Assembly: GCA_025057645.1 (NCBI GenBank)
Contig: JANXBJ010000007.1
Span: 46,664 to 110,663, forward strand
Direction of reading: 5' to 3'
DNA from: Anaerolineales bacterium
GTDB lineage: Bacteria; Chloroflexota; Anaerolineae; Anaerolineales; UBA4823
Length of the DNA stretch: 64,000 nt
Positions 13,788 to 47,616 of the stretch are shown here, piece by piece. The position numbers were made by a program, and so were the translations under genes. The notes under the pieces are model-generated. The model was given only the letters and a program-made list of their open reading frames with translations, had not been told where the DNA came from and ran no database searches. How positions within the stretch are numbered: position 1 is the stretch's first letter; the number at the start of each line of letters is the position of its first letter.

Positions 13788-14414
13788 TTGAGCCAGCAAT
13801 GGGTAAGCTTTCTGGGTGTTCTCCTTGCTGTCGGGGCTGCCCTATATAATCTCATTTCTTCGGACTGGCGTTGGAGAATGCTAGCGCTTGGGGTTCAAGG
13901 GATCGGCTTCTTTCTGCTCTGTTTTCAAAGTCTCTCGCTTGGATTGTCTCTGGTGAAGTTCATCGAGAGTTGGACAGCGGTGGCGATCATCGGCACAGCT
14001 TTGGCGAATACAGCCCGTAATCCTGCCCGGGGAAGATCGGTGGAGAGAGAGACAAGCGGTCCTTTTCATTTTCCGTTTTCTGCGAGGGCATTCCGCCTTG
14101 CAATGGCCGTCCTTATCGGCATAGCGCTTCCCCAAGCAGTCTGGCACTTAATGTCTCTGTTCGGCGGCCTTGGCTTCTTCCATGCTATAGCTGCTCTCGC
14201 ACTCAGTAGCATTTCTCTGCTGATTTTGAGCTTTCGGACCTCCACCCTTTCGATTGCGATTGGACTGCTCACATTTTTCCAAGGTTTCGAAATCCTTTTT
14301 GCTGCGATCGAACCCTCGCTCATGCTTACCGGTCTACTGGCGGCTATCGTCTTGAGCACGGCCTTCCTTTGCGCTTATTTCCTTCGGGTGGAAGAGGAGC
14401 GTCAAGCCCGATGA
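13788..14414 (+). CDS. Small polytopic membrane protein, C-terminal half NuoK/MrpC-like (tentative)
   Basis: 208 aa with a TTG start 4 nt after the upstream stop. The GFEILFAAIE segment resembles the GLEIMINA helix of NuoK. Confidence 0.4.
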   Translation: MSQQWVSFLGVLLAVGAALYNLISSDWRWRMLALGVQGIGFFLLCFQSLSLGLSLVKFIESWTAVAIIGTALANTARNPARGRSVERETSGPFHFPFSARAFRLAMAVLIGIALPQAVWHLMSLFGGLGFFHAIAALALSSISLLILSFRTSTLSIAIGLLTFFQGFEILFAAIEPSLMLTGLLAAIVLSTAFLCAYFLRVEEERQAR

Positions 14415-15820
14415 ATGCCCCTTTAGTGTGGATCGGGCTGCCCACGCTCTTTTCCATCGCTCTGCTTCTCCTCCTCCGTTGGAGAAAGGTCGCCGCCCTA
14501 AGCGGAAGCATTTTCGCGCTCGGCCTGGCCAGCGCAGCTTGGGCGCTACCTGTCGGGGAAAGGGTACAAGTTGGGGTTCTGAGCTTTGAGATCGAGGCAA
14601 GCTGGCTCTTATTTGGAAGAAGCTTCATATTGGAGAGCTCCGACCGACCCTTGGTCATCCTGCTCAACCTCGCTATCGCTCTCTGGTTTGTCGGTACTCT
14701 CAGCAGTGAAGTTCATCCCTTCTTTTTCCCCCTGGGAATGGGCCTGAGCGTAGCTCTGATAGCCGCTGTTCTCATTCAACCCCTTTACTACGGCGCCATT
14801 CTCGTCCAGTTAGCCGCAGTGATTTCGCTCCTTTTGTTCGTCAGTGATTACCCAGAAATTGATCTAGGGATCAAGCGTTTTTGGGTCTTTCAGAGCCTTG
14901 CGATGCCTCCGCTGCTCTTTGCGGGCTGGTTGCTCGAGGGAAACGAAGCGAGTCCAGATGCAATTCCAAGCCTCTCTCTGCTGATTCCCCTTCTGCTCGG
15001 CTACAGCCTATTGCTCAGTGGAGTGCCTTTCCAAAGCTGGCTGCCTGCCGTTGCCCAGCACGCTAACCCCTTCTCCTTCGCCTTTACCCTCTTTGTTGCT
15101 TCCTTTACGACTGTCCTTTTTGCCTTTTCTCTCGTCCGGGAATTTGCTTGGCTGGTCTCCTCACCCTGGATAATCGCCTTTTTCAGCCTCCAAGGTCTGA
15201 TGATGAGCCTTATCGGCGGATTGGGTGCGCTCTATCATCGCCACCTAGGCCGGTTTCTAGGATATATCCTAGTTAAGGAGCTTGGGTTTAATTTTCTGAT
15301 CTTAGGCCTAGGGTTGCTCTCGTCGGAGAAGTCGCCCTTGCTTGCGCTCCTCTTTTTGCAAGCCTTGCCTCGCGGACTTGCGCTAGCTCTATTGACATTT
15401 GCCTCTAATATCTATCGGGACCAAAGGGGGAGTCTATCCATTCAGGACCTGGTTGGAATAGGGAGGCAGTATCCGCTGGCCACCTTCGCATATTTTGTTG
15501 CAGTGTTAACTCTGGCGGGCTTTCCACTGACCGCTGCCTTTCCGACACACCTTCCGATCTGGCAAGGTTGGTTTGAACGCTTCCCGCCAATCGCCATTAG
15601 CGCAGTGTTTGGGAGTATTGGAGTGATGATCGGCGGCTTGCGCACTTTAGCAGCCTTGATCCGCAGCACAGGCGAGCCGGGATGGGTCTCTTCTGAGCTT
15701 CACGGCCAAAGGGTTCTCTTGACCGTTGGAGGGCTTGGGTTGCTCCTAGCCGGCATCTTCCCCCAATGGTTCTTCCCGCTGCTGTTCCAAATGGGTTTGA
15801 CCTTCCTCCAAGGAGGATAA
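14411..15820 (+). CDS. Polytopic membrane protein, divergent NuoL/M/N (antiporter-like) family
   Basis: ATGA overlap with the upstream gene. GVPFQSWLPAVAQHANP, ALYHRHLGRFLGYILVKELGFNFLILG and LTLAGFPLTAAFPTH follow the spacing of conserved PF00361-type blocks, but the Lys/His/Glu positions are substituted. Confidence 0.55.
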   Translation: MNAPLVWIGLPTLFSIALLLLLRWRKVAALSGSIFALGLASAAWALPVGERVQVGVLSFEIEASWLLFGRSFILESSDRPLVILLNLAIALWFVGTLSSEVHPFFFPLGMGLSVALIAAVLIQPLYYGAILVQLAAVISLLLFVSDYPEIDLGIKRFWVFQSLAMPPLLFAGWLLEGNEASPDAIPSLSLLIPLLLGYSLLLSGVPFQSWLPAVAQHANPFSFAFTLFVASFTTVLFAFSLVREFAWLVSSPWIIAFFSLQGLMMSLIGGLGALYHRHLGRFLGYILVKELGFNFLILGLGLLSSEKSPLLALLFLQALPRGLALALLTFASNIYRDQRGSLSIQDLVGIGRQYPLATFAYFVAVLTLAGFPLTAAFPTHLPIWQGWFERFPPIAISAVFGSIGVMIGGLRTLAALIRSTGEPGWVSSELHGQRVLLTVGGLGLLLAGIFPQWFFPLLFQMGLTFLQGG

Positions 15821-15908
15821 GGCGGAGTTAATGGGCAGTCCAGGACTTGGACGATTCCTGTCCACCTCTATTTACCAAAGTCCAAAGGACTCTGAGGGGG
15901 TATGCCCG

Positions 15909-15917
15909 TGCTATAAT
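15909..15917 (+). promoter_or_regulatory. Extended -10 promoter element (TGcTATAAT)
   Basis: tgctataat at 15909-15917, about 40 nt upstream of the AAGGAG-preceded ATG at 15958. Confidence 0.45.
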
Positions 15918-15957
15918 CGACTCAAGAAACCTTCACCGCTTATGCCAAGGAGCCTTG

Positions 15958-17133
15958 ATGCAATCCGAACAAATCCTCAAGCAACTGAATTGGCTGGATG
16001 ACGAACGGCGTAAGGATAAAGCAACCATTGCCTCTCTTGAGGAAAAGGTCAAAGCCCTAGAACAAAGCCTGCAAATCGCCGATCAACAAATCAAAGAATT
16101 ATCCACCGAGTTGAGTCGCCTTAAGTCGTTGGGAGGCCGCGTCGAGCAAATCGACGAAGCTGTCATGAGATTCAGGCTCGAAGTCAAGCAGCAGTTTGAA
16201 GAGTGGGAAAAAGAGACCCAGCGACGCGAGCAGGAAGCGGAGAAGCTTCGCCAAGTCGAAATCAAGGGTCTAGACACCTCGATCCTCGAACTGCGCAAGG
16301 AACTGAGCACCCTCGCCGAGGTCCGCCGCAGCCTACAAACCCGTATTGAAGAAGAAATGCGCCTATCGCGCACAATAGGCCAACTTGAAGAGAAAATCGC
16401 TGAACTTCAACGAACAGAGGAGGAGTATAACCGTCTTCTTCGCCAAGCGGAGGAGAATCGACGTCAGGATGCCCGCAAGATCACCGATCTACAAGGGGAA
16501 GCCATGGCACTTCGCAAACTCTACAACGAGCTCCAAGCGCAGCTTGAATTGGCCAGTGTGGCTGCAAAGCGAATCGAAAATCGAATGGCTGAGCTGGAAA
16601 ACACCTTCGGCGAGCTCAAACAAGCACAGAGCAAGTTCATCGAAGAACAGGCTTTACTCCAACTCGAACGAGAACGACTGTGGAAAGAGTGGCAAGCGAA
16701 GATCGAACAATCGGAACAGATGAATGCCGAGGCGGAGAAGACCATTCAGACCGTAGACTCCACCAGCCGTGCAGTACAGAGGGCACACCAGGCTATTGAG
16801 GAACTGATCCAAAAGGTCGAGCGACGGGTTAGCGAACTCACCGAACTGCAGCGCCTAGGCGAAGAGCGGCTACGTCAAGAATGGGTGACTTTCAAAAGCG
16901 ATGATCAAAAGCGCTGGACGAATTACTCCCTTGTCCAAGAGGAGATCCGCTCCGATCTAGTACGCCAGATCGAAAAAATTACCGGCCAACTCAACGAACA
17001 CGAAGAAGGTCTCCGGACGATTCAGGAGTCGATGGCTCTTTTGAACGAACAACTGGAACGCAACCTGCGCAACATACTCAATGCTATCTATAGTTGGGCT
17101 GCGGAATACGACCGCACTAAACACACTCTTTAG
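15958..17133 (+). CDS. Coiled-coil protein, function unknown
   Basis: 391 aa of almost uninterrupted heptad-like E/K/Q/L/R-rich sequence with no TM segment. The start is trimmed to ATG 15958, which has an AAGGAG SD. Confidence 0.7.
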   Translation: MQSEQILKQLNWLDDERRKDKATIASLEEKVKALEQSLQIADQQIKELSTELSRLKSLGGRVEQIDEAVMRFRLEVKQQFEEWEKETQRREQEAEKLRQVEIKGLDTSILELRKELSTLAEVRRSLQTRIEEEMRLSRTIGQLEEKIAELQRTEEEYNRLLRQAEENRRQDARKITDLQGEAMALRKLYNELQAQLELASVAAKRIENRMAELENTFGELKQAQSKFIEEQALLQLERERLWKEWQAKIEQSEQMNAEAEKTIQTVDSTSRAVQRAHQAIEELIQKVERRVSELTELQRLGEERLRQEWVTFKSDDQKRWTNYSLVQEEIRSDLVRQIEKITGQLNEHEEGLRTIQESMALLNEQLERNLRNILNAIYSWAAEYDRTKHTL

Positions 17134-17142
17134 AGACAACAA

Positions 17143-19068
17143 ATGAAGGTCATCGGCACAGCCGGACACGTCGATCACGGAAAATCTTCATTGGTCGAGG
17201 CATTGAGCGGCATCAACCCGGATCGCCTTGCCGAAGAACAAGCGCGTCAGATGACCATCGATCTCGGGTTTGCTTGGTTCACCCTGCCGAACGGAGAGGA
17301 GATCGGTATTGTGGACGTGCCCGGCCACCGCGATTTTATCGAGAATATGCTAGCGGGGGTTGGAGGGATTGACGCAGTCCTTTTGGTGATCGCCGCTGAC
17401 GAAGGGGTGATGCCCCAAACCAAGGAACACCTGGCTATCCTCAATCTGCTGCAGATCGAGCGTGGCGTTGTCGCCCTAAATAAGATCGATCTCGTTGACG
17501 AGGAGTGGCTAACCTTAGTTGAAGAAGACATTCATCAGCTCCTAAAAAACACCCGTCTCGCCAAAGTGCCAATTGTGCACGTTTCTGCCAAAACTCGTCA
17601 GGGGCTGGATAAACTCGTATTTGCTCTACAAAACGAGCTGAGCAACCTTCCTCAGCGGGTCAACAGCGGCCGTCCCCGTTTGCCTATCGACCGTGTCTTT
17701 AGCTTGAGCGGTTTCGGAACCATCGTCACCGGCACGCTAATCGATGGGAATCTGGAGGTAGGAACCGAGTGCGAGATTCTGCCCAAAGGTCTGAAGACAC
17801 GCATTCGGGGACTGCAAACCCATAAAAGGAAAGAAGAAATCGCCTTTGCCGGAAGCCGCACGGCTGCAAATCTCAGCGGAGTCTCTGTGGATCAGATTCG
17901 ACGCGGAGATGTTCTGGTCGGAACCGGTTCGTTTCGACCCACCCAACGGTTAGATGTACGGTTTCGACTCCTCCCGGACGCCACGAGAAACCTGAAGCAC
18001 AACACCGAAGTAAAACTCTTTCTATACACCAGCGAAGTGCTAGGACGGGTGAGGCTCCTCGGTGCGGAAGAACTCCCTCCGGGGGAAGAGGGCTGGCTTC
18101 AGATCGAGCTGCAGTCCCCCGTTGTGGCTGCGCGGGGCGATCGATTCATCTTGCGCCGTCCTTCCCCTTCGGAGACTCTCGGGGGCGGAGTGGTGCTCGA
18201 TCCTTTCCCGCTCCGCCGCTACAGACGCTTTAGCAACGAATGGCGCGAACGCTTGGAGGCCCTATCGCTAGGCACTCCCAAAGAGGTGATCCTGAACCTC
18301 CTTCAACGCAACGCGTGGATGACCCTCACGCAACTCCTCCAAGAGAGCAACTTTGCCCCAGAGAAGGTTGAACAAGCGATCTCCTCCCTGCTCCAAGAAG
18401 GACTGATCATCGATCCCCAACAAAGGTTCTCTAAAGAAACAAAAGAGAAACTTGAAGCTCCTTTGATCGCTCGCTCAAGGTGGGAGGAATGGCAGAAGAA
18501 GGCCCAAATCCTCTTAGAGGAATACCATCAGTCTTATCCCTTGCGGCGTGGAATGCCGCGGGAAGAACTAAAAGCCCGCCTCAAACTGCCTTCCTCGCTT
18601 TTCCAAACCTTGGTGGAAACGCTGAAGAGCCAAGGGAAAGTAAAAGAAGAAAAGACTGCACTGGCTCTCTCGGAGTTTCAAATCCGGTTATCCCCCGGTC
18701 AACAAGAACAAGTCAACACGCTTTTGCGTTTGTTTGCCCAAGCTCCCTTTTCACCACCGAGCGTCAAGGAGTGCAAGCAAAAACTAGGAGAAGAGCTTTA
18801 CACAGCACTTTTGGAACTGGAAGAACTAATTCAAGTCTCAGAAGAAGTAGTTTTTCGCCGGCAAGATTATCTCAAAGCCAAGGAGACGGTGCGCCAACTG
18901 ATCACTAATCAAGGAGAAATCAGTGCGGCGCAGGTGCGTGACCACCTGCAGACCAGTCGCAAATACGCCTTAGCACTGCTAGAGTACCTCGACCAAATCG
19001 GTTTCACCGAACGGCGGGGTGATGTGCGTATCCTGAAATCAACAGCGCTCCCAGCAAGAGAAAGATAA
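17143..19068 (+). CDS. selB: Selenocysteine-specific translation elongation factor SelB
   Basis: EF-Tu-like GTPase motifs GHVDHGKSSL, DVPGH and NKIDL. The long C-terminal winged-helix region ends ...RKYALALLEYLDQIGFTERRGDVRIL, typical of bacterial SelB. 641 aa. Confidence 0.9.
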   Translation: MKVIGTAGHVDHGKSSLVEALSGINPDRLAEEQARQMTIDLGFAWFTLPNGEEIGIVDVPGHRDFIENMLAGVGGIDAVLLVIAADEGVMPQTKEHLAILNLLQIERGVVALNKIDLVDEEWLTLVEEDIHQLLKNTRLAKVPIVHVSAKTRQGLDKLVFALQNELSNLPQRVNSGRPRLPIDRVFSLSGFGTIVTGTLIDGNLEVGTECEILPKGLKTRIRGLQTHKRKEEIAFAGSRTAANLSGVSVDQIRRGDVLVGTGSFRPTQRLDVRFRLLPDATRNLKHNTEVKLFLYTSEVLGRVRLLGAEELPPGEEGWLQIELQSPVVAARGDRFILRRPSPSETLGGGVVLDPFPLRRYRRFSNEWRERLEALSLGTPKEVILNLLQRNAWMTLTQLLQESNFAPEKVEQAISSLLQEGLIIDPQQRFSKETKEKLEAPLIARSRWEEWQKKAQILLEEYHQSYPLRRGMPREELKARLKLPSSLFQTLVETLKSQGKVKEEKTALALSEFQIRLSPGQQEQVNTLLRLFAQAPFSPPSVKECKQKLGEELYTALLELEELIQVSEEVVFRRQDYLKAKETVRQLITNQGEISAAQVRDHLQTSRKYALALLEYLDQIGFTERRGDVRILKSTALPARER

Positions 19069-19109
19069 GTATAGGCGAAATATCCACCAGCTTATGTAGC
19101 ACACTTACT

Positions 19110-22100
19110 ATGAGAAACCGACTTATACGTCTTACTTTGCCTTTATTATTCGCTTTTGGGGGGATCATAGCGTTGGTAGCTGCGGTGCGCAGCGAGGCTT
19201 GGGCACAACAGGGCGCCCCGTCAACGATGTATCCAGTGCACCAAGGTTCTCTGCGGCCTCAAAGCGGTGGAGGGGACCTATCGATTACTAAAACCCACAC
19301 CACTCCCCTGATCCTAGGACAAGTGACTACCTACACGCTATTTGTCAAAAACGTCGGCGCAGCGATCACCCCCCCCTACCTCGTGAAAATCACCGATACC
19401 CTGCCGATTCCTTCCCTCGCTTATCAAGCCCATCAGGGCACAGGGTGGAACTGCACGGTGATCACCCCCACAATTGGGTGCCAGTATGCACTCACCCAAA
19501 CGCTAAATAGCAATGCTTTTCTCCCGCCGCTAAAAATTATTGTCTCGGTCAAGCAACCAACCCCTTCATCCTTCAACAACGTTGTCATAATCAGCGATAC
19601 CCTGGGCACCAATAATACCTTTACCGATCCAGCGATTATCAGCACCAATCTCTCGATCACCAAATCAGCCTTTCCGGGAGTGATCACACCTACCCGAACC
19701 GTGACTTTCACTCTTCAGGTGAAGAATAACGGGCCCAACGACGCCAGCAGCGTTAGGGTCACGGACACCCTTCCGAGTGTCTTCATCTTTTCCGCAGCTA
19801 AGCCGAGCGGCCAATATAACCCCGCAACCGGATTGTGGTCTGTGGGCAGCCTCGCCAAAAACGAGACGAAAACGCTCGAGATTGCTGCCGTTGTAAGAGA
19901 CCGAATTTGTGGTCAGCTCTATACCAACTCGGTTGAGGGGCTTTCCGCAGATCTAGTCGACCCAATTCTGAGCGATAATACAGCCTCGGCTTCCGTAACC
20001 GTCAGAAACACTTGTGTCGTAGGAAGAGTGGTCCGCTCAGACAACACGAGCATCCCTATTCAGAACGCCAGAGTGAGGATTACCGACAGTGGCAATCGGG
20101 TCTATACTATAACGGTCTCGGCTGATGGTGTGTTTACGTTCACCAACTCGACCACGCAGACGTTGGCTGCCGGCAATGCCACCTTCTTGGCCTCTGCGGT
20201 GGGGTTTCGTCCGAAAAGTGTCTCCAGCTCCCTCGTTGCCGACATCAAGAACGGGCCGATCATTATCCCCCTTGACCCTATTGCCCAACTCGACCTCCGC
20301 AAATCGGACGGCACTCTACACTTCATCCCCGGCGAGACGATCACCTATACCATCCCGATCACCAACCTAGGGGTGCTCAATGCACGCAATTTGGTCATCA
20401 GCGACGTCCTAGATAGTCAACTGATCTTTATTACCTATACGCTCAGAGACAAAAGCGGAAAAATCCCTCACGTTGTTCCCACGCCAGTGAACCGCGTCTA
20501 CACTTGGACGCTCTCCTCAAGCTACATACTAACCGCTACCGAAAAGTTGACCCTCGCCATTCGGGTAAGGGTTGCCGACCCCTTGGCAAGCGGCACAAAC
20601 CAAATCGATAATAAAGTGTCCTTGCGCTACAACGAGGACAACACTAGCCGGGTGAACAAAAGTGCCACCGACATCTCCTACACTCCTAATTTTGAGATCG
20701 TTCAGAACAGCGTCAATCCCACCGAAGCGAGAATCAACGAAAGGTTTACGTTTAGTTTCCGAGTCTATAACCGTCAACCTCAGGTAGCAGCAACAAATGT
20801 CGTCTTCACCAACACCTTTCCCGCTTACCTGAGCTTCTATTCAAGTAGCCCAACCGGGAGTTACAACAATAACAACCGGGTCTTCTCGGTTGATCTTGGG
20901 ACGATACCTCCCAATTCGTTCAAAGACGTCCAAATTGTCATGAGCGTCAGCAATGTGGCTGCTTCTACACAAACGCTCAATAATACGGGAACAGCTCGGT
21001 TTGAGCACGGGGGCAAACGGCAGTGGCGCAGTTCAAACACCGTGCAATACCGTATCTTGGGCACCTCAACCCTGCCGGGGACCGGGTTTGGGCCTCCTGC
21101 AGCAGTCAAGTCAGTGGGCAACCTCTTCGAACCCCAAGAATCGAAAGCCCCCCCTTTCGCCTTTTTGCAACTCTTCCAAGAGGCCAAGGGTAGAAAACCT
21201 CTCACCCACCCCCTCAACTTAACAGAGGGAAGGAATCCATCCCGGGACTCTTTAGCGCTCCCGCTGGCATTCTGGGTGGCTATGGGCATCGGGATTCTCT
21301 TGCTCGGCGGTGGGCTGCTGGGGGTGGCCTATAGCCTGCTCGACCGCAGCTCGGAGTGGTCGAGTTGGGCGAGACAAATGGGATTGGTGGTGATGTTCGC
21401 CAGCTTGTTCTTTTTTGGAGGAGCGTTGTGGCTAAGAAGCATCGCTGCGCCGGTTCAATCAGAAGAATTCATTCGGTCTCCTCAGCCCGTGCCCACGCTG
21501 CTCAGTCAGCTCCCCGAACCCGCTCTCCCTCCGCCCGAATGGTGGGCAGCCCAGCCTGAAAGCTTGCCGGATTATCCCATTCCCACTCCGACCTTAGCCG
21601 CCGACCAAGCAGGCGTAGAAGTGGACGATACCCCACCGGTTCGCCTGCTGATCCCAAAGTTGGGCGTAGATGCCGTAATCAAGTATGTGCCCTTCGATGG
21701 GTTCACTTGGCTGATCTCCGGCCTACAGGATGAGATCGCCTGGATGGGAAGCACCTCTTGGCCGGGGCTAGGGGGGAACACTGGCTTGGCCGGCCACGTC
21801 ACCCTGCGCAATGGCGCCGATGGTCCTTTCCGCTATCTGGACGCTCTACAAAAGGGAGACATTGTCCACCTCTACACCCAAGAAAGACTCTATACCTACC
21901 GCGTCCGAGAAAGCCTGATCGTTAAGGACGACGACTTTTCAGTTGTCCAACCCACTAGTGAGCCCACTCTGACGCTGATCACCTGTACCGGCTGGAATGA
22001 CGACTTCGGGCACTACTTAGAGCGGCTGGTGATACGCGCAACACTGGAGAAGTCCCAGCCTTTGAGCGGCGCAGGTCCGTTAGGATGGCCGATTTGGGGG

Positions 22101-22124
22101 TTTGGATGGTTAGGGGGAAATTAA
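19110..22124 (+). CDS. Surface protein with DUF11-type repeats fused to an LPGTG motif, two TM helices and a C-terminal sortase domain
   Basis: N-terminal signal/TM segment. Four DUF11-like repeats (DLSITK...VKNVG..., NLSITK...VKNNGPNDASSVRVTDTLP...). A CarboxypepD_reg-like beta domain. The remaining elements are listed as separate features below. Confidence 0.8.
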   Translation: MRNRLIRLTLPLLFAFGGIIALVAAVRSEAWAQQGAPSTMYPVHQGSLRPQSGGGDLSITKTHTTPLILGQVTTYTLFVKNVGAAITPPYLVKITDTLPIPSLAYQAHQGTGWNCTVITPTIGCQYALTQTLNSNAFLPPLKIIVSVKQPTPSSFNNVVIISDTLGTNNTFTDPAIISTNLSITKSAFPGVITPTRTVTFTLQVKNNGPNDASSVRVTDTLPSVFIFSAAKPSGQYNPATGLWSVGSLAKNETKTLEIAAVVRDRICGQLYTNSVEGLSADLVDPILSDNTASASVTVRNTCVVGRVVRSDNTSIPIQNARVRITDSGNRVYTITVSADGVFTFTNSTTQTLAAGNATFLASAVGFRPKSVSSSLVADIKNGPIIIPLDPIAQLDLRKSDGTLHFIPGETITYTIPITNLGVLNARNLVISDVLDSQLIFITYTLRDKSGKIPHVVPTPVNRVYTWTLSSSYILTATEKLTLAIRVRVADPLASGTNQIDNKVSLRYNEDNTSRVNKSATDISYTPNFEIVQNSVNPTEARINERFTFSFRVYNRQPQVAATNVVFTNTFPAYLSFYSSSPTGSYNNNNRVFSVDLGTIPPNSFKDVQIVMSVSNVAASTQTLNNTGTARFEHGGKRQWRSSNTVQYRILGTSTLPGTGFGPPAAVKSVGNLFEPQESKAPPFAFLQLFQEAKGRKPLTHPLNLTEGRNPSRDSLALPLAFWVAMGIGILLLGGGLLGVAYSLLDRSSEWSSWARQMGLVVMFASLFFFGGALWLRSIAAPVQSEEFIRSPQPVPTLLSQLPEPALPPPEWWAAQPESLPDYPIPTPTLAADQAGVEVDDTPPVRLLIPKLGVDAVIKYVPFDGFTWLISGLQDEIAWMGSTSWPGLGGNTGLAGHVTLRNGADGPFRYLDALQKGDIVHLYTQERLYTYRVRESLIVKDDDFSVVQPTSEPTLTLITCTGWNDDFGHYLERLVIRATLEKSQPLSGAGPLGWPIWGFGWLGGN
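21072..21086 (+). other. LPGTG sortase-recognition-like motif inside 19110-22124
   Basis: Codons ctg ccg ggg acc ggg read in frame as L-P-G-T-G (context TSTLPGTGFGPP). Confidence 0.6.
21630..22070 (+). other. Sortase catalytic domain of 19110-22124
   Basis: RLLIPKLGVDAVI, His in GLAGHVTL (21795-21797), Cys in TLITCTG (21984-21986) and Arg in LVIRATL (22035-22037). This is the canonical His-Cys-Arg triad order. Confidence 0.8.
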
Positions 22125-22312
22125 AAGGCTAAGCCGTAGCGCTACACCGGCTTGTTCGCCCAAGACGCTGGCCTCTCGGACGTAGGCAATCGAGATCGGC
22201 CGATTCCTCGGGGAGTCTGCAACCGCAGGCGTCAAGCGCAAGAGGTCTCTAAGCAAAGCATCCAACCCTCGGCAGCCTTAAACCACCGAGCCCCTATTCT
22301 ATGGGGGGAAGC

Positions 22313-23935
22313 TCATCCGCTTTGCTTCTCCTGCCATACCCAATTTCCTCCAATCATGGTCGCAACCGGGCTGAGCTCCCTGAGTTCGCTCGGTGGCACC
22401 TTGTAGGGGTCTTGATCCAGGAGGATCAAGTCGGCATAATAGCCGGGGCTGAGCTTACCTAACCGGTCTTCCATAGAAGCCGCAAAGGCAGCGCCGGTTG
22501 TATAGGCACGCAACGCCTCCGAGAGCGTGATTTTTTCCTCTGCTACCCACCCCTCAGGGCCAGGACTGCCATCTGCCCGCTGACGAGTGACGGCGGCATG
22601 GAGACCCCAGAACGGGTTAGGAAACTCGACCGGCGCGTCCGAGCCGAAGGCTAGAATGGCTCCATAGTCTAGTTGGGTTCGCCAAGCATAAGCATAGCGG
22701 ATACGCTCCGGTCCCCAGTAGCGCTCAGCCATCTCCATATCTGAGGTGGCATGAAGGGGTTGCATCGAAGCGATCAACTTGAGTTCCGCTAAACGCCCGA
22801 GGTCGTGAGGATGCAATGCTTGAACGTGCTCAATGCGGTGGCGCAATTGGGGAACTCTGGGATACACACTCTTCTCAAATTGGCGTATGTTTTGGAAAGC
22901 ATCGAGAACTTCCCGATTAGCGCGGTCACCGATGGCATGAACAGCCAGCGACCAGCCACTCCGGGTCGCCTTGACGCCCAACTCGGTTAGCCTTTCGGCA
23001 TCAAGAAGCAAGGAGCCTCGGTTATCAGGCTCGCCGATATAGGGATCAAGCATTGCTGCTGTATGCGGCCCTAAAGCACCGTCAGCAAAAAACTTCAAGC
23101 TGCCTAAGCGCAAACGATCGTCTCCAAAGCCGCTGCGCAGGCCCGAGGCAATCGCTTCCTCCATAAGCTCGGCAGGCAGATTCTTTACCACGCGCAGCTT
23201 CAGTCGTCCTTCGGAGTGCAGCTCCTGCAGGGAAAAGAAGCACTCTCGACCGTCAAAGTCGTGGACACAGGTCACACCGAGCCGAAAGAGCACCTCTTGG
23301 GCTTCCAAGATGGACTGCTTGATTTGGAGCAGAGTGGGCTGCGGGATTACCGCTGCCACCAACCGCATGGCATTTTCCAGAAGAATCCCGCTGGGTTTTC
23401 CATCGGATTGACGCTGAATAATCCCGCCCGGAGGATCGGGGGTGTAAGCGGAGATGCCCGCTTTTTGCAGAGCGAGGGTGTTTACCCATGCAGCATGCAG
23501 CGATTTTGCCGTAAGGTAAACCGGATGGGCAGGAGCAACCCGATCTAAAAGGCTTGCGTCGCCAAAGCCCTCTCTCCATGCATTTTGATTCCAACCGTGT
23601 CCCAAAATCCACTCGCCGGGAGGAAGCTTTTGCGCTCTCTCGGCCACCCGCTGGAGGCACTCTTCGATCGTGGTGGTCTCGCAGTTGATTTTTTGCAAGC
23701 TCGCACTGAAATGCTCCAAATGCAGATGAGCATCGATCAATCCGGGCAGCACGGTTTTCCCTTTCAGGTCAATGAACTCCGCCTCGAAAGGGTAAGCACG
23801 GTATCGAGCTAATAACTCCCGCTCCTCCCCGACCTCAAGGATGCGTTCGCCCAAGATCGCACAAGCAGAGGCTCTCGGTCGAAGATCGTCCAAGGTAATG
23901 AAGTGAGCATGATAAAGAACGAGAATCCGAGCCAA
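22313..23935 (-). CDS. Amidohydrolase-3 family metal hydrolase (YtcJ-like)
   Basis: 540 aa. PGLIDAHLHLEH metal motif and AVHAIGD. Length and architecture are typical of the YtcJ-type subgroup. Confidence 0.8.
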   Translation of the reverse strand: MARILVLYHAHFITLDDLRPRASACAILGERILEVGEERELLARYRAYPFEAEFIDLKGKTVLPGLIDAHLHLEHFSASLQKINCETTTIEECLQRVAERAQKLPPGEWILGHGWNQNAWREGFGDASLLDRVAPAHPVYLTAKSLHAAWVNTLALQKAGISAYTPDPPGGIIQRQSDGKPSGILLENAMRLVAAVIPQPTLLQIKQSILEAQEVLFRLGVTCVHDFDGRECFFSLQELHSEGRLKLRVVKNLPAELMEEAIASGLRSGFGDDRLRLGSLKFFADGALGPHTAAMLDPYIGEPDNRGSLLLDAERLTELGVKATRSGWSLAVHAIGDRANREVLDAFQNIRQFEKSVYPRVPQLRHRIEHVQALHPHDLGRLAELKLIASMQPLHATSDMEMAERYWGPERIRYAYAWRTQLDYGAILAFGSDAPVEFPNPFWGLHAAVTRQRADGSPGPEGWVAEEKITLSEALRAYTTGAAFAASMEDRLGKLSPGYYADLILLDQDPYKVPPSELRELSPVATMIGGNWVWQEKQSG

Positions 23936-23942
23936 GAGAGAC

Positions 23943-24797
23943 CTATCCTTCGTGCGGAAGGAGGCGTTGAATCAGAGCCTCTAGTTCCTCATCCGAGTAG
24001 TAATGGATCACAATTGTGCCGCCGCCCTTCTTGCGCTGCGAAAGCCTCACCTTTGTCCCCAGAGCTTGGGATAGCTGAGTCTCCAGAGAGCGGATCTCGG
24101 GAGCAGTCTCTCTGGGTATGCTCGAGGAGGGCTTTCTGCCCAAGAACTTGCGCACTAGCTCCTCGGTTTGACGTACGCTAAGCTCGTTTTGGAGCACAGT
24201 CTGCAAGGCAGCGAGCTGGGCTTGGGGACTAGGCAGAGCCAGCAAGGCGCGTGCGTGCCCCTCACTAATTCGGCGCTGGCGCAAGGCCTCTTTCACTGCC
24301 TCGGGGAGTTTGAGCAAGCGCAAAGTGTTGGTGATCGCCACCCGGCTTTTCCCCACACGCTCCGAAATCTTTTCATGGGAGAGATGGAAGTGCTCAATCA
24401 ACACTCGATAGGCCTCAGCCGCTTCAAGGGGGTCGAGGTCTTCACGCTGAAGGTTCTCGACCAACGCCAGCTCTAGGCGGGTGCGCTCGTCTACCTGACG
24501 TTGAATTACTGGCACAGCGCTCAACCCGGCTTGTTTGGCCGCCAGCCACCGCCGTTCGCCGGCGATCAAGACGTAGCGCTCCTGTTCCGGGTCGTAGCTG
24601 ACCACCAATGGCTGTAAAATCCCATGCTCCCGGATCGATTGCGCCAATTCCGCCAGTTGCCCGCTTTCAATCTGTGCGCGCGGTTGCAAAGGGTTGGGCA
24701 CGATCCGTTCAATCGGCACAAAACGCACCCCTTGGGAGTCCTCGCCGGCTGGAATGAGTGCATCTAGGCCGCGGCCAAGAACCGTTCGCTTGCTCAT
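23943..24797 (-). CDS. parB: Chromosome partitioning protein ParB
   Basis: LGRGLDALIP N-terminus, ParB box IAGERRWLAAKQAG, HTH region and a C-terminal dimerisation tail. Confidence 0.9.
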   Translation of the reverse strand: MSKRTVLGRGLDALIPAGEDSQGVRFVPIERIVPNPLQPRAQIESGQLAELAQSIREHGILQPLVVSYDPEQERYVLIAGERRWLAAKQAGLSAVPVIQRQVDERTRLELALVENLQREDLDPLEAAEAYRVLIEHFHLSHEKISERVGKSRVAITNTLRLLKLPEAVKEALRQRRISEGHARALLALPSPQAQLAALQTVLQNELSVRQTEELVRKFLGRKPSSSIPRETAPEIRSLETQLSQALGTKVRLSQRKKGGGTIVIHYYSDEELEALIQRLLPHEG

Positions 24798-24805
24798 CTT
24801 ATACC

Positions 24806-25609
24806 TCAGCTCTGCTGAATTGGCGTGGGAATGAACACCCCATCCCCCTGCAGAAGCTCTTGAGTGAAAGCTTCATAGGCAAGCGCTCCACTCGACTGAG
24901 GGGCATAGAGCACAATGGGCTTGCCGAAAGAAGGAGCCTCGGCCAGTCGAACGCTGCGGGGGATGATAGTCTGAAAGACGTTATTGGGAAAGAAGCGCTT
25001 GACTTCTGCCACAACTTCGTTGGAGAGGTTAGTGCGGCTATCGAACATGGTCAAAAGAACCCCGCGAATTGTCAGTTCAGGAAAGAGGGCGCTCCGAACG
25101 CGCCGAATCGTGTCCATAAGGCGTCCCAGCCCTTCAAGCGCAAGATACTCGCACTGGACAGGGATGATCAAGCCATCCTTGGCAGCCACAATTCCGTTGA
25201 GCGTCAGAAGCCCAAGGGAAGGGGGACAGTCGATCAGGATGTAGTCATACTTCTCGATCAAGCTGCGAATAGCAGAGCGCAGTTTGCTTTCGCGTGCGAT
25301 CTCGCTAACCAATTCGATCTCGGCACCAGCAAGCTCGGCGTTCGCTGGCAGAATCGACAACTTAAGCCGAGGATTATATAGAACGAACGCCTCCGGCGGA
25401 GAAGCACCGATCAATACCTGGTAGGTGCCGCCTTGGATAATATGACGATCGATATTTAAGCAGGAAGTGGCATTGGCTTGGGGGTCGAGGTCAATTATCA
25501 GAACCCTCAGACCAAATCTACCAAGATAGGCGGCAAGGTTAATGGCCGAGGTTGTCTTCCCAACTCCTCCCTTCTGGTTGACAAAGGTGTAAATGCGCCC
25601 CATCAGCAC
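24806..25609 (-). CDS. parA: Chromosome partitioning ATPase ParA/Soj
   Basis: Deviant Walker A NQKGGVGKTT. IIDLDPQANAT. 267 aa (the start may be the ATG at 25603). Confidence 0.9.
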   Translation of the reverse strand: MLMGRIYTFVNQKGGVGKTTSAINLAAYLGRFGLRVLIIDLDPQANATSCLNIDRHIIQGGTYQVLIGASPPEAFVLYNPRLKLSILPANAELAGAEIELVSEIARESKLRSAIRSLIEKYDYILIDCPPSLGLLTLNGIVAAKDGLIIPVQCEYLALEGLGRLMDTIRRVRSALFPELTIRGVLLTMFDSRTNLSNEVVAEVKRFFPNNVFQTIIPRSVRLAEAPSFGKPIVLYAPQSSGALAYEAFTQELLQGDGVFIPTPIQQS

Positions 25610-26457
25610 ACCTCAACCAAGCATTGCTCGATCTCCCTCTGCGTCGGGATGCTCTCTAAACCGGCCCGGGTGACAGAAAAGGAGGCTAACTGAGTAGCAA
25701 ACCGACCTGCCTCCCATGGATCGCGCGTCTCATAAAGGCGGATGAAGAAAGCAGCTGCGTAGATGTCCCCTGCACCTACCGGATCGACCTCAAGGATATT
25801 AGGCGGAGGACGAAAGCAGCGCACCTCTCCATTCCAAAAGACACGCGAACCCCCTGCGCCCTCTGTAACAGCCAGGATATGACACGAGGCCGCAAACTCG
25901 TTAATCATGTCTTCGCTACCTGCCACATCTTCGACACTGATCACAGTGGCATCCACATGGGGCAGCACAAAGGTAGATTCCGGCCACTCGGTCGGATAGA
26001 CGTTGCCTTCCGCATCCCAAGCGCGCAGCCAGCCCTGAGGGGTAACCCCGATAAACGAGTGCGCAAAGTGACGCACGAAGTCCGGGCTTACCTCTTGGGC
26101 GACCGGCGCAAGATGAACAATAAGCGGACGGCGCCAAATTTCCGGCACGAGATAATATTCTAGGGTTTCAGCGCAGTGGAAGATCCTTTGCACCCGTCCC
26201 TTAGGTGTTTCGTGATTGGAAAATGTGGTGCTGGCTAGCGCAGGGAGATGCACCACCGGAATCGAACCGAGTGGATCTAAGGATAAGTCATCCCCAAATG
26301 AGGAGATAATCCCTACACGCATGCCCAATGCTTGCGCCGTCAGGCCAGCATAGGCCACACTGCCCCCTAGCCGGACGCCGCCCTCAACTAAGTCTAGTGT
26401 GAGATGACCTACTAAAAGATAATCAATCGGTTTTAGATGCTCTAAGGAGTAAATCAT
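25603..26457 (-). CDS. PfkB-family carbohydrate/nucleoside kinase
   Basis: C-terminal DPVGAGD motif and a ribokinase-like layout. The stop overlaps the parA start. Confidence 0.8.
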   Translation of the reverse strand: MIYSLEHLKPIDYLLVGHLTLDLVEGGVRLGGSVAYAGLTAQALGMRVGIISSFGDDLSLDPLGSIPVVHLPALASTTFSNHETPKGRVQRIFHCAETLEYYLVPEIWRRPLIVHLAPVAQEVSPDFVRHFAHSFIGVTPQGWLRAWDAEGNVYPTEWPESTFVLPHVDATVISVEDVAGSEDMINEFAASCHILAVTEGAGGSRVFWNGEVRCFRPPPNILEVDPVGAGDIYAAAFFIRLYETRDPWEAGRFATQLASFSVTRAGLESIPTQREIEQCLVEVC

Positions 26458-40794: not shown

Positions 40795-42717
40795 CTAATT
40801 CTCCTTCATATAGTCTAAGAGTTCGAGCTGCTCAACCGCTTGACGAGAAGGTATGCCCTGCTCATCCCAGCCCATGCGACGGTAGTATACGCCCAGCCAG
40901 TAGCGCATTTCCTCCGGGGTTAGAGCTCGGTTGGCGATCGGACCTTCTGAGAGCTTATAAAAAGCGCGGGCACTCAAGCGATCATCCTGAGCAGTAAAGC
41001 CTTCCCGCAACAAGTAGAGACGGCCCAGTGTGATCGCCCGAAGGCCGATGCGATTGATTTCATCTAGGGTGACATCCCACCCAGAAGCAGCGCTGAGGGC
41101 TTCCACCATATGTTGGTACAAATAAGGGTAGAAATGGCAGATCACTGCGCAGTCATAAAAGTTCTTGAAAGCGGTCTCATAGTAAAAAGCCTCGATCTTG
41201 AGTTCCGAAATCCCCCAAAGAGGCATCGGAACCGGAAGACCAACTTCCTTCAAGCGTGAGCAAATATCGCCCTCTTCAGCCGTGGCAAAGCTGTCATTAT
41301 AGTTATGCATGTGATCTGCCCCAGTGGCAGAGAGGGCATATCCCATGGCCATCGTTTGTTTCAGACGCGGATCGTGCATGGGCAACTCTTGCCCTCGACC
41401 GGTTGCTAACCACTCATGTGCCCTACCTCCAAGCCGATCCGCCAGTCTCTGGCTTCCCTCGGCCATCCAATCGCCTGGGCCCTCTCGATGAGCAATCTGA
41501 TGGATAGCCCTAATCAAGGACTCGCCATCCCCAAAGCGGGGTGCTATCTCCCGCCATTCGAGCGGCAATGCGCCCTGCTCAAGGGCTTCCATAGCAAAAG
41601 CAATGGTGCCGCCAGTCGAAATGCTATCCAATCCATAGGCGTTGCACAGCTCATTCGCCTTAGCGATGACCACCGGATCGGAAATATCACAAAGAGGACC
41701 CAGCGAGGCAATCGATTCGTATTCCAACCCGCCGTAGCGGGTATCGATTGGGGTTTCTTCGTCCTCGTATCCGACGACCAACTTGCAACGGACCGGGCAC
41801 TTGTTACAGGTATCTCGGTCTCTCACCAAGAGTCGAAAGAGCTGTTCTGGCTCTAATTGGTCAGCTCCGCTCAAAAGACCTCGAGTATAGTTTCGGATCG
41901 CCGTGGCGCCAGTAAGCACATTCCCCAACGCCGAGCCAGCCGTGCCATATTGGATCGCCCAAGCCATATCAGTCTTGTAGTGCACATTAATCCATTTCTG
42001 GACCGTCTGCATAAGGCTTTTGTTCTCCAATCCTACAGGGAGCGAGCCGCGCACAGCGACAGCCTTGAGATTTTTGCTCCCCATAACGGCACCGATCCCC
42101 GACCGCCCCGCTGCGCGGCTCACATCGTGCATCACGCTAGCATAGCGCACAAGATTCTCCCCGGCCGGCCCAATACAAGCCACACGCAGCTTCTCATCAC
42201 CTACTGCCTCTCGGAGCGCATCCTGCGTATCGGCGGTGGTTTTGCCCCAAAGGTGTTTGGCCGAGTGGAGCTCTACTTCCCGGTCGCGAATCAATAGATA
42301 GACGGGTTCTGCAGCCCTACCGTGAATCACCACCGCGTCATACCCAGCGCGCTTTAGCTCGCTCCCCCACCACCCTCCGGCCTCGCTCGAGGCCAACGCT
42401 CCGGTGAGCGGAGATTTAGCGCCGATGGCATGTCTCCCCGTTCCGGGGAGCACCGTCCCGCTCAGGACTCCGGCAGCAAAGATGAGCAAATTCTGCGGGC
42501 CTAGGGGATCAATTCTTGGGGGAGTTTGCGTCAGCAGATAGTGCAAAATAAAATTTCTGCCCCCCACAAAACGGCGATAAAATGCCTCGGGTGGAGATTC
42601 CACCCAACAACGGGGGGTGGTAAGATCCACATGCAACACCAAACCCGTATAAGCACTCTGCCCGTTTAGAAACTCCGCTCTTGGCAAGGGTAACGTATCA
42701 GCCTTGTAGACCAGCAT
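40795..42717 (-). CDS. Aldehyde:ferredoxin oxidoreductase family (tungstopterin/4Fe-4S)
   Basis: 640 aa. The N-terminal AOR_N-like region and the CNKCPVRC (CxxCxxxC) cluster motif are typical of AOR-family enzymes. Confidence 0.85.
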   Translation of the reverse strand: MLVYKADTLPLPRAEFLNGQSAYTGLVLHVDLTTPRCWVESPPEAFYRRFVGGRNFILHYLLTQTPPRIDPLGPQNLLIFAAGVLSGTVLPGTGRHAIGAKSPLTGALASSEAGGWWGSELKRAGYDAVVIHGRAAEPVYLLIRDREVELHSAKHLWGKTTADTQDALREAVGDEKLRVACIGPAGENLVRYASVMHDVSRAAGRSGIGAVMGSKNLKAVAVRGSLPVGLENKSLMQTVQKWINVHYKTDMAWAIQYGTAGSALGNVLTGATAIRNYTRGLLSGADQLEPEQLFRLLVRDRDTCNKCPVRCKLVVGYEDEETPIDTRYGGLEYESIASLGPLCDISDPVVIAKANELCNAYGLDSISTGGTIAFAMEALEQGALPLEWREIAPRFGDGESLIRAIHQIAHREGPGDWMAEGSQRLADRLGGRAHEWLATGRGQELPMHDPRLKQTMAMGYALSATGADHMHNYNDSFATAEEGDICSRLKEVGLPVPMPLWGISELKIEAFYYETAFKNFYDCAVICHFYPYLYQHMVEALSAASGWDVTLDEINRIGLRAITLGRLYLLREGFTAQDDRLSARAFYKLSEGPIANRALTPEEMRYWLGVYYRRMGWDEQGIPSRQAVEQLELLDYMKEN

Positions 42718-46242: not shown

Positions 46243-47616
46243 TCACAAATAGAGATTCAGGTCAACGACAGGGTATGCTACCCGTTGACCATATGCACGA
46301 ATTTCCGGTTTATACGTAGCGTCGATGATCACCTTAGTGTGCACGCCACGTTCGTTTGCGGTCGGATCCATCTCATGGCCCTGCGCGCCCTGAATGCGTA
46401 CAACATCTCTCCCCCAGTCCACTCGGTTGGTCAATGCCCAGTGGAGATCAGCCGGATCGTAAATATTGACATCCGGGTCGACAACAATCACCTTGGCGAT
46501 ATTGACATGGGCTGTAAAGGCTGCTAAGGCGACGTTTTTGGGTTCTCCGGGGTTGCTCTTTTCGAGCTGAATAACCGCCAAGAAGCCATTCCCATACGGA
46601 GGGATGTGCAAAGCGCGCACGTTTGGACTCACATGGCGAACAAAGCGCAGCAACAGCGGTTCACGCGGGAGAACGTTCCCGATATAGATATGCTCGTCCC
46701 AACCGGGCACGATCGTCTGATAAATAGGCCGATTGCGAAAACACACGGCGGTCACTTCAAAAACGGGTGAATCCCAAATTTCTCCATAGTAACCGTGAAA
46801 CTCGGCTAAAGGCCCTTCCGGGTGGCGTTTATGAGGAGGCAAATAACCCTCAATGACAATTTCCGCGTGATAGGGGATCAAAAGGTCAACCGTAACCCCC
46901 TTAGTGACCAGCACCCCTTCCCCACGCAGTGCTCCGGCGATGGCTAGCTCGTCTCCCTCGTATCGGGCCGCAGCGGCGATCATAATTGCCGGGTCGAGGC
47001 CGATGGCAACTGCAATGGGCAGCGGCTGATTCTGAGCTTGCTGGTGCTTATAGAACTGCATTACATGCCGCCACTCATTGACATTGAAGCCAAAAGTCCG
47101 CCGATCCAAAACTTGCATCCGATTGTAAGAAAGATTTCCCCGGCCGCTGACAGGGTCTCGGCTCACGGTTACCCCGCCTGTAATGAAGGCGCCTCCGTCA
47201 TATTGCCCGTGGATTGGGATAGGCAAATCGTAGAGATTGATTTGCTCTCCTGTCAATACGTTAGCTTGCCAAGGAGGAGCTTGTTCAGTTACCCTGGGCG
47301 CTATCCCTTGCGCCGGATCCAGAGCTCTGCCCATGCGCGCAGAAAGATCCTCAACTGAACACTCCAAAGCCAGTGCAGCCAAGCTCGGATTGACCAGTGC
47401 GTTCGTAAAAACGCCCCAAGGGTACAACTGCCCTTGCTGTGAGGGCGGACTGTCTCGTTTGATTTTCTCAAAGAAAATTGCATTGCCAAGGCGACGCGCC
47501 ACTGTTGCGGCGAGGTTCGCCAGTTCGTAATCCAGGTCGACATCTTTCCGGATGTGCAAGAGCCTCTGATTTTGTTCCAAGGTCTCAAGATAGCTTCGTA
47601 GATCGTATATTCCCAT
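46243..47616 (-). CDS. UbiD-family (prFMN-dependent) decarboxylase
   Basis: The start is trimmed to ATG 47616 ([33 protein letters not shown]...), a typical UbiD N-terminus. About 457 aa. Confidence 0.8.

Follow-up and report, generated by a model that had tools for sequence, protein, structure and literature searches.

One gene of the DNA analysed here (the window: 64,000 nucleotides, positions 46,664 to 110,663 of contig JANXBJ010000007.1, assembly GCA_025057645.1, from an Anaerolineales bacterium of the Chloroflexota) joins in a single polypeptide a surface stalk with an LPGTG sorting motif and a sortase, and this fusion of substrate-like and enzyme parts is real. Sortases are textbook trans-acting enzymes, which cut the LPXTG motif of separate substrates in which a transmembrane (TM) helix and a basic tail follow closely after the motif. 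The gene described here probably codes for a self-contained 'auto-anchoring' surface protein, which would process itself, in cis or between copies, and bring its stalk to the wall. In fact, as judged from its relatives and their gene order, this is one conserved gene of the Anaerolineae, for which the fused form is normal and passed on by vertical inheritance. The precursor runs from a signal peptide through four DUF11/CLIPPER repeats and a CarboxypepD_reg-like sandwich to the LPGTG motif, a spacer, two TM segments, a Pro-rich linker and the sortase domain, located in the window as follows (pLDDT: predicted local distance difference test of AlphaFold2):

19110..22124, forward strand: whole gene, coding for the 1004-residue precursor (list of open reading frames (ORFs), Pfam, and an identical protein in NCBI and in independent assemblies)
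19110..19202, forward strand: predicted Sec signal peptide (residues 1-31; hydropathy), with a basic MRNRLIR, a hydrophobic core and a cleavage site between AWA and QQ
19275..19619, forward strand: DUF11/CLIPPER repeat 1 (residues 56-170; PF01345, 26.2 bits on a fragment)
19650..19997, forward strand: DUF11/CLIPPER repeat 2 (residues 181-296; PF01345, E-value 4e-29)
20016..20231, forward strand: CarboxypepD_reg-like beta-sandwich (residues 303-374; PF13620)
20322..20666, forward strand: DUF11/CLIPPER repeat 3 (residues 405-519; PF01345, E-value 2e-11)
20700..20996, forward strand: DUF11/CLIPPER repeat 4 (residues 531-629; PF01345, E-value 4e-12)
21072..21086, forward strand: LPGTG sorting motif (residues 655-659), with the predicted scissile bond between T658 and G659
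21087..21251, forward strand: spacer of 55 residues (660-714), unconserved and clade-specific, pLDDT below 50
21252..21341, forward strand: TM1 (residues 715-744; hydropathy), predicted out-to-in, hydrophobic part of the sorting signal
21342..21374, forward strand: predicted cytoplasmic loop DRSSEWSSWAR (residues 745-755), with the family motif EWxxW
21378..21437, forward strand: TM2 (residues 757-776; hydropathy), predicted in-to-out, membrane anchor of the sortase
21438..21647, forward strand: Pro-rich linker (residues 777-846), containing the invariant LPDYPIPTP
21564..21590, forward strand: LPDYPIPTP segment (residues 819-827), L and P invariant in 86 sequences
21648..22046, forward strand: sortase catalytic domain (residues 847-979; PF04203, E-value 8e-24)
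21795-21797, forward strand: H896, invariant in 86 sequences
21984-21986, forward strand: C959, within TLITC, invariant in 86 sequences
22023-22025, forward strand: R972, the catalytic Arg, 13 residues after the Cys, invariant in 86 sequences
22047..22121, forward strand: C-terminal tail (residues 980-1004), Trp/Gly-rich, unconserved, pLDDT below 50

The gene was found as a single ORF with an ATG start, 1004 codons and zero internal stops, as a preliminary description of the window had read it, and the frame is unbroken at about 21090-21250, where that description had advised looking for a frameshift or stop. Moreover, a 32-kb contig of the independent Logan assembly of SRR15826899 codes for the identical 1004-residue product, which lies there, as in the window, after SelB and before an amidohydrolase and ParB. 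The window protein is also present in NCBI as MCS7248137.1 and MDW8161949.1, both titled 'sortase [Anaerolineales bacterium]', and a second 1004-residue member of the same 90% cluster as MCS6908861.1 and MDW8448274.1. Database titles for the family read 'sortase' or 'sortase domain-containing protein', with no remark on the fusion.

When residues 640-1004 of the window protein were used as the query, 439 relatives were obtained, many of them proteins of 500-640 residues with both PF01345 and PF04203, and nearly all of these carry LP[GP]TG directly upstream of two hydrophobic segments, together with TLxTC. One genome of each GTDB species was scanned, and the 80 loci obtained all carry the module and come from metagenome-assembled genomes (MAGs) of the Chloroflexota, nearly all labelled Anaerolineae or Anaerolineales and one labelled Ca. 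Aquidulcis, of the class Limnocylindria. At about 65 of the 80 loci the module lies in one intact ORF of 525-1246 residues with 1-6 DUF11 repeats, in the order signal peptide, variable DUF11 region, LPxTG, two TM segments and sortase. The 'sortase-only' ORFs were re-examined, and most, mainly from long-read MAGs, had LPxTG just upstream in another frame, while one short form of this kind has a 568-residue fused sibling at an identity of at least 90%. The preliminary description had proposed that substrate and enzyme are fused, and had asked whether homologues would show fused or adjacent genes: the fused state is the conserved one, with a single split lineage described below, and the assembly error which it had named as a refuting case is not what the relatives show. 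A search with the module from a MAG labelled 'Anaerolinea thermophila' found no carrier among named isolates.

The motif itself is kept as strictly as the catalytic residues. A profile search of 1.84 billion representatives was carried out, in which giant DUF11 proteins dominated because the profile included DUF11 columns; among the best 150 matches, which were examined, 72 further proteins had the sortase signature of the family, and every one of the 72 had [LI][PA]xTG upstream. Every one of 86 aligned sequences has the T and G of LPxTG, whose L and P are at least 90% conserved, a level reached elsewhere only by H896, C959, R972, the sortase core and the LPDYPIPTP segment, the residues flanking the motif, the spacer and the linkers being variable. 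The motif was LPGTG in 103 of 153 members and LPPTG in 35, with LPSTG, LPNTG, LACTG and IPATG as rare forms. By itself LPGTG is weak evidence, since LP.TG appears in about 5% of shuffles of the window protein; what decides that the motif goes beyond chance, as far as comparison can tell, is its position together with its conservation across the family. The coordinates first given for it (21072-21086) are unchanged, and the doubt raised with them, that the motif might not be conserved in relatives, has been removed, LPxTG being conserved as strongly as the catalytic triad. A second LPGTG of the window, at residue 91 of a 640-residue ORF on the reverse strand (40795-42717), has no hydrophobic segment after it and is most likely a chance occurrence.

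What follows the motif is also of the kind found in sorting signals. Among the 153 members a charge-free hydrophobic segment begins a median of 12 residues past the motif, and the loop between TM1 and TM2, with a median length of 13 residues, contains 3 K/R vs 1 D/E and is net positive in 95%. Since a gap of about 12 residues, a hydrophobic helix and a positive loop follow the motif, the family carries the complete tripartite sorting signal of motif, hydrophobic helix and basic loop. The Trp positions of EWxxW in this loop are conserved family-wide, although positive charge is all that ordinary sorting signals need after their hydrophobic segment.

In the window protein the spacer counts 55 residues up to the first hydrophobic segment, in agreement with the linker of about 55 residues in the preliminary description, and the loop DRSSEWSSWAR, with 2 Arg vs Asp and Glu, has a net charge of 0. 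Judged by comparison within the family, both belong to its clade in particular: in the nearest relatives (loci L001, L002 and L004) the spacer is 34-77 residues long. The caveat that the long distance from LPGTG to the membrane weakens the case is thus resolved by a clade-specific insertion against a family median of about 12 residues. In two of these relatives (L002:1119-1378 and L004:6061-6320) the spacer contains in-frame GC-rich hairpins (CCCCTCTCC...GGAGAGGGG followed by GGGGTGAGGGA), which are read as PSPLGRGERGEG-like peptides and look like small palindromic repeat insertions in a coding spacer, so that the spacer tolerates insertions. A similar origin was considered for the window spacer and rejected, neither repeats nor matching mobile elements having been found in that spacer or elsewhere in the window. 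The window spacer does include, at 21142-21168 on the forward strand, a hairpin resembling a terminator (CGAAAG-CCCCCC-CTTTCG, then a T-run); terminator-like sites in the region number 6, which is not above the shuffled expectation of 3.6 +/- 2.3.

The two hydrophobic helices noticed at first reading were recovered both by hydropathy and by AlphaFold2, which was run on the C-terminal 365 residues of the window protein and on a homologue with a short spacer (P0005). The TM helices and the sortase domain were modelled with confidence, TM1 as a helix of residues 719-744 and TM2 as one of residues 751-779, both at pLDDT above 90. The predicted topology places the stalk and LPGTG outside the cell, TM1 running inwards, the loop in the cytoplasm, TM2 running outwards and the sortase outside again. 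The layout is, on this prediction, that of the C-terminal sorting signal of a substrate joined head-to-tail to the N-terminal anchor of a sortase, and the motif and the enzyme would lie on the same side of the membrane, which supports self-processing. The pentapeptide of a sorting signal is present, followed after the loop by some 250 further residues; placement of the signal at the extreme C-terminus is seen in the split lineage only.

In that lineage (L080:4577-6543) the gene is divided into one for a 400-residue CLIPPER protein and one for a 254-residue sortase. The former ends with LPGTG, 14 residues, the hydrophobic stretch AVLLLLPFVLLLPLVIL, GRRWSSSPQP and a stop, its TGA overlapping (as ATGA) the start codon of the sortase gene, and the sortase has an N-terminal anchor of its own, with a lipobox-like LLASC. 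A sequencing error in a C6 homopolymer was considered as the cause of the split and ruled out, since an independent metagenome contig from the Joint Genome Institute (L083:1-930), at 89% nucleotide identity, shows the same frames, stop and ATGA overlap; the tail of the substrate across both is GR[RH]WSSSPQP. Furthermore, the split pair adjoins selB, which is also the upstream neighbour of the fused gene in the window. By its gene layout this lineage is a classical substrate gene with an adjacent sortase gene, a Rosetta-stone pair which suggests that the N-terminal half of the fused protein is the substrate of the C-terminal half, and which shows that TM1 and TM2 need not be connected, as would be expected were LPXTG the site of a cut.

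The C-terminal half has what is expected of the sortase family. PF04203 was matched with 84 bits vs a cut-off of 26.6 and TIGR01076 with 39.4 vs 39.35; sequence matches in the PDB were 4d70 (class D), 2kw8 (SrtA) and 5cuw (SrtE1), and Foldseek retrieved class A, D and E sortases with target TM-scores of 0.6-0.8 (5hu4, 4d70 and 5cuw at 0.68-0.78). The catalytic His, Cys (in TLxTC) and Arg are present, and TM2, as the predicted N-terminal anchor, precedes the extracytoplasmic domain. The His (21795) and the Cys in TLITC (21984) of the preliminary description proved invariant, but its Arg, at 22035, is R976, which is not conserved among relatives; the catalytic Arg is R972, because it is R972 that is invariant. 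None of the class cut-offs of NCBIfam is reached, the scores being 54 bits vs 160 for class E, 48 vs 165 for class D, 47 vs 166 for class F, 31 vs 160 for class C and 31 vs 158 for the GN type (TIGR03784), and by these scores the enzyme is a separate clade, fitting no described class.

The domain is preceded by a spacer already described as Pro-rich, residues 780-846 of the linker being about 24% Pro as read from the sequence. Within it the LPDYPIPTP segment, modelled at a pLDDT of about 85, probably packs on the sortase domain in the AlphaFold2 model, where it could serve as a lid or a pseudo-substrate. At the other end of the domain, the Trp/Gly-rich tail of the window protein, GAGPLGWPIWGFGWLGGN, is not conserved in relatives.

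The first half of the protein has the composition of a secreted adhesin stalk. The N-terminal segment, first listed as a signal or TM segment, can be read as a predicted cleavable signal peptide, assigned by hydropathy, its n-h-c layout and AXA-type site being read off the sequence; relatives show the same layout. The four DUF11-type repeats and the beta-sandwich of the preliminary description agree with Pfam: DUF11 (PF01345, now named CLIPPER) was matched in four stretches with an overall E-value of 1.4e-53, and PF13620 scored 35.0 bits on a fragment vs a cut-off of 32.3 (31.7 bits in the full protein), the borders of repeats and sandwich having been fixed by a Pfam scan of protein fragments. 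The best stretch for TIGR01451, residues 405-446, lies within repeat 3. With four PF01345 domains behind a signal-peptide-like N-terminus, the protein belongs among secreted DUF11/CLIPPER proteins. This domain has the CnaA-like immunoglobulin (Ig) fold typical of adhesin stalks and pilins, an intramolecular isopeptide bond occurring in only a subset of CLIPPER domains (PMC12617251). Repeat 4, beside the motif, is kept in all relatives, with the consensus ...V.YR....STLPGTG. The N-terminal regions of the family are very variable in length and composition, with Thr/Pro-rich runs and differing numbers of repeats, and no conserved distal domain was seen in them among the relatives compared, a pattern typical of an exposed, fast-evolving stalk on a conserved processing module.

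The surroundings of the gene are conserved as well. In the window (14369-26457) it is preceded by genes for a NuoN-like membrane protein, a coiled-coil protein and SelB, and followed by those for an amidohydrolase, ParB, ParA and a PfkB-type kinase on the opposite strand, a neighbourhood common to dozens of Anaerolineae species. Downstream, at the 70 loci with enough flank, the amidohydrolase was found in 64, ParA in 63, ParB in 62 and the PfkB-type kinase in 54; upstream, SelB and the coiled-coil protein were each found in 35 of 61. Because this synteny is conserved, the gene is to be regarded as an old, vertically inherited core gene rather than a sporadic fusion. Some genomes (L022, L031, L036, L060 and L010) hold two tandem copies of the DUF11-LPXTG-TM-TM-sortase gene. 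No classical C-terminal LPXTG substrate and no second sortase were found in the window and about 0.9 Mb of locus flanks, which represent one genomic region only. A protein search aimed at such substrates, with the last DUF11 repeat, LPGTG and the spacer as query, gave no match either, probably on account of its word prefilter. The whole window (1-64000) contains no tRNA genes and no Rfam family at gathering score.

These elements can be combined into a mechanism. The precursor would be exported by means of its predicted signal peptide, so placing the stalk and LPGTG outside the cell, with TM1 and the loop as the hydrophobic and charged parts of the sorting signal, and TM2 would return the chain to the outside and anchor there a catalytically complete sortase on a flexible Pro-rich linker of about 70 residues. 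Within the same chain, or in a copy beside it, the bond between T658 and G659 would then be attacked by Cys959, which would form a thioester with the stalk; an amine, most probably on a peptidoglycan precursor, would accept the stalk from it. The outcome would be a stalk covalently linked to the wall and a residual membrane sortase with two TM segments, which may process further molecules. Within-chain cleavage is chemically feasible, since engineered SrtA-LPXTG fusions cut themselves (PMC2901362), and the invariance of T and G together with the hydrophobic-basic signal is the pattern that selection for cleavage predicts.

Several points weigh against this interpretation. The cleavage itself is deduced from sequence, and LPGTG has a pLDDT of only about 50-58 in both AlphaFold2 models, with no confident docking in the active site. 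The gap of 55 residues and the loop without net positive charge make the window protein less canonical than its family, and the Gram_pos_anchor model of Pfam has no match in it, either at full length or in fragments. Moreover, the sortase reaches the cut-off of no curated class, so that specificity and motif preference are not transferable to it from characterised enzymes. Finally, cleavage could occur in cis or in trans, peptidoglycan is only a likely acceptor, and other substrates may exist. A stricter version of self-processing is possible and is put forward only tentatively, its parts being taken jointly: each molecule would cut its own LPXTG in cis, obligately and in a single turnover, and attach its own passenger to the wall, after which the freed sortase with its two TM segments would be spent or would become a housekeeping enzyme, self-cleavage amounting to the activation of a zymogen. 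Such an obligate auto-sortase could be likened to a monoderm counterpart of the autotransporters.

Among the alternatives, it is unlikely that the motif is not self-processed at all, the product being an intact membrane adhesin-sortase in which LPGTG acts as a pseudo-substrate or regulator, or else a housekeeping sortase with a DUF11 pro-region. The undocked motif of the AlphaFold2 models, the conserved syntenic setting expected of a housekeeping sortase, and the presence of a second invariant LP-containing segment, the LPDYPIPTP discussed above as a possible lid, would all fit this explanation. Nevertheless, the invariance of T and G and the complete hydrophobic-basic signal fit selection for cleavage, in the split lineage the first half persists as a classical substrate in its own right, ending directly behind the signal, and a housekeeping role does not contradict self-cleavage, the two being compatible.

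Assembly of a fibre or pilus is quite improbable. Here the Thr of LPGTG would be linked to another stalk subunit, at a Lys or at its new N-terminus, and covalent DUF11/CLIPPER polymers of the kind made by class C sortases would arise in place of single stalks anchored to the wall. The Ig fold shared with adhesin stalks and pilins (PMC12617251), a 1:1 ratio of enzyme to subunit, which would suit polymerisation, and the tandem paralogues of L022, L031, L036 and L060 speak for it. However, neither a conserved domain nor a Lys motif like that of pilins is present in the highly variable N-termini, no class model gives a poorer score than that of class C (31 bits), and most loci hold a single gene rather than a cluster with minor pilins. 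As for a sequencing or assembly error joining two neighbouring genes, to which the two genes of one related lineage and the unconserved spacer might point, this explanation is effectively refuted by the identical 1004-residue ORF of independent assemblies, the fused ORF in about 65 other species, and the presence in frame, between LPGTG and the sortase, of TM1 and TM2 homologous to those of relatives.

Comparison with known systems helps to delimit what is new in the self-processing surface protein proposed here. Canonical sortase/LPXTG systems (S. aureus SrtA with protein A; classes A-F) share with it the sortase fold, the His-Cys-Arg triad, TLxTC and an enzyme anchored N-in/C-out, and their substrates share the signal peptide, Ig-like stalk, LPXTG, and hydrophobic then basic segment. 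Unlike those systems of monoderm bacteria, the present one forms a single polypeptide by way of a TM hairpin, has an internal sorting signal, belongs to a Chloroflexota host, and has an enzyme below every NCBIfam class cut-off. Sortases dedicated to a single target are known as well, such as SrtB with IsdC, or TIGR03784, the 'marine/GN' sortase of proteobacteria, with the target encoded next to it, and of the known arrangements such gene pairs come closest. The logic of one enzyme and one substrate is the same, and L080/L083 form exactly such a pair, whereas in the window and nearly all relatives the two are covalently fused, and TIGR03784 is matched with only 31 bits vs 158. In autotransporters (type V secretion) and Hedgehog-type autoprocessing, one precursor contains both the displayed passenger and machinery for its placement or attachment; folds and chemistry are unrelated to those of this family, and the likeness is an analogy only, which implies no homology. 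In engineered self-cleaving fusions (Mao's method; BISOP, PMC2901362) a sortase and LPXTG likewise stand in one chain which cuts itself, but these soluble constructs are artificial and have the sortase on the N-terminal side of the motif, whereas the window family has the reverse order and is membrane-embedded, natural and conserved.

The sortase, the LPXTG signal and the CLIPPER stalk (PMC12617251) are thus standard parts, and what is new is their fusion through a TM hairpin, the internal sorting signal, an enzyme outside the described classes and the conservation of the whole across the Anaerolineae. The preliminary description was aware of no self-loading arrangement of this kind, and likewise no published natural sortase-substrate fusion was found in the full-text literature, subscription-only work, such as in-silico surveys of the superfamily, being outside that search.

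From its architecture and conservation, the family looks like a natural self-loading surface-display protein. If this is true, it would represent a new mode of surface display, both stoichiometric and self-loading, and would pair enzyme and substrate, built in and defined by the gene itself, in a sortase clade beyond classes A-F. Protein tools that cleave or ligate themselves could also be modelled on this natural example. Furthermore, it would be evidence for covalent anchoring to the wall in the Anaerolineae, and so would bear on the poorly understood envelope of the Chloroflexota.

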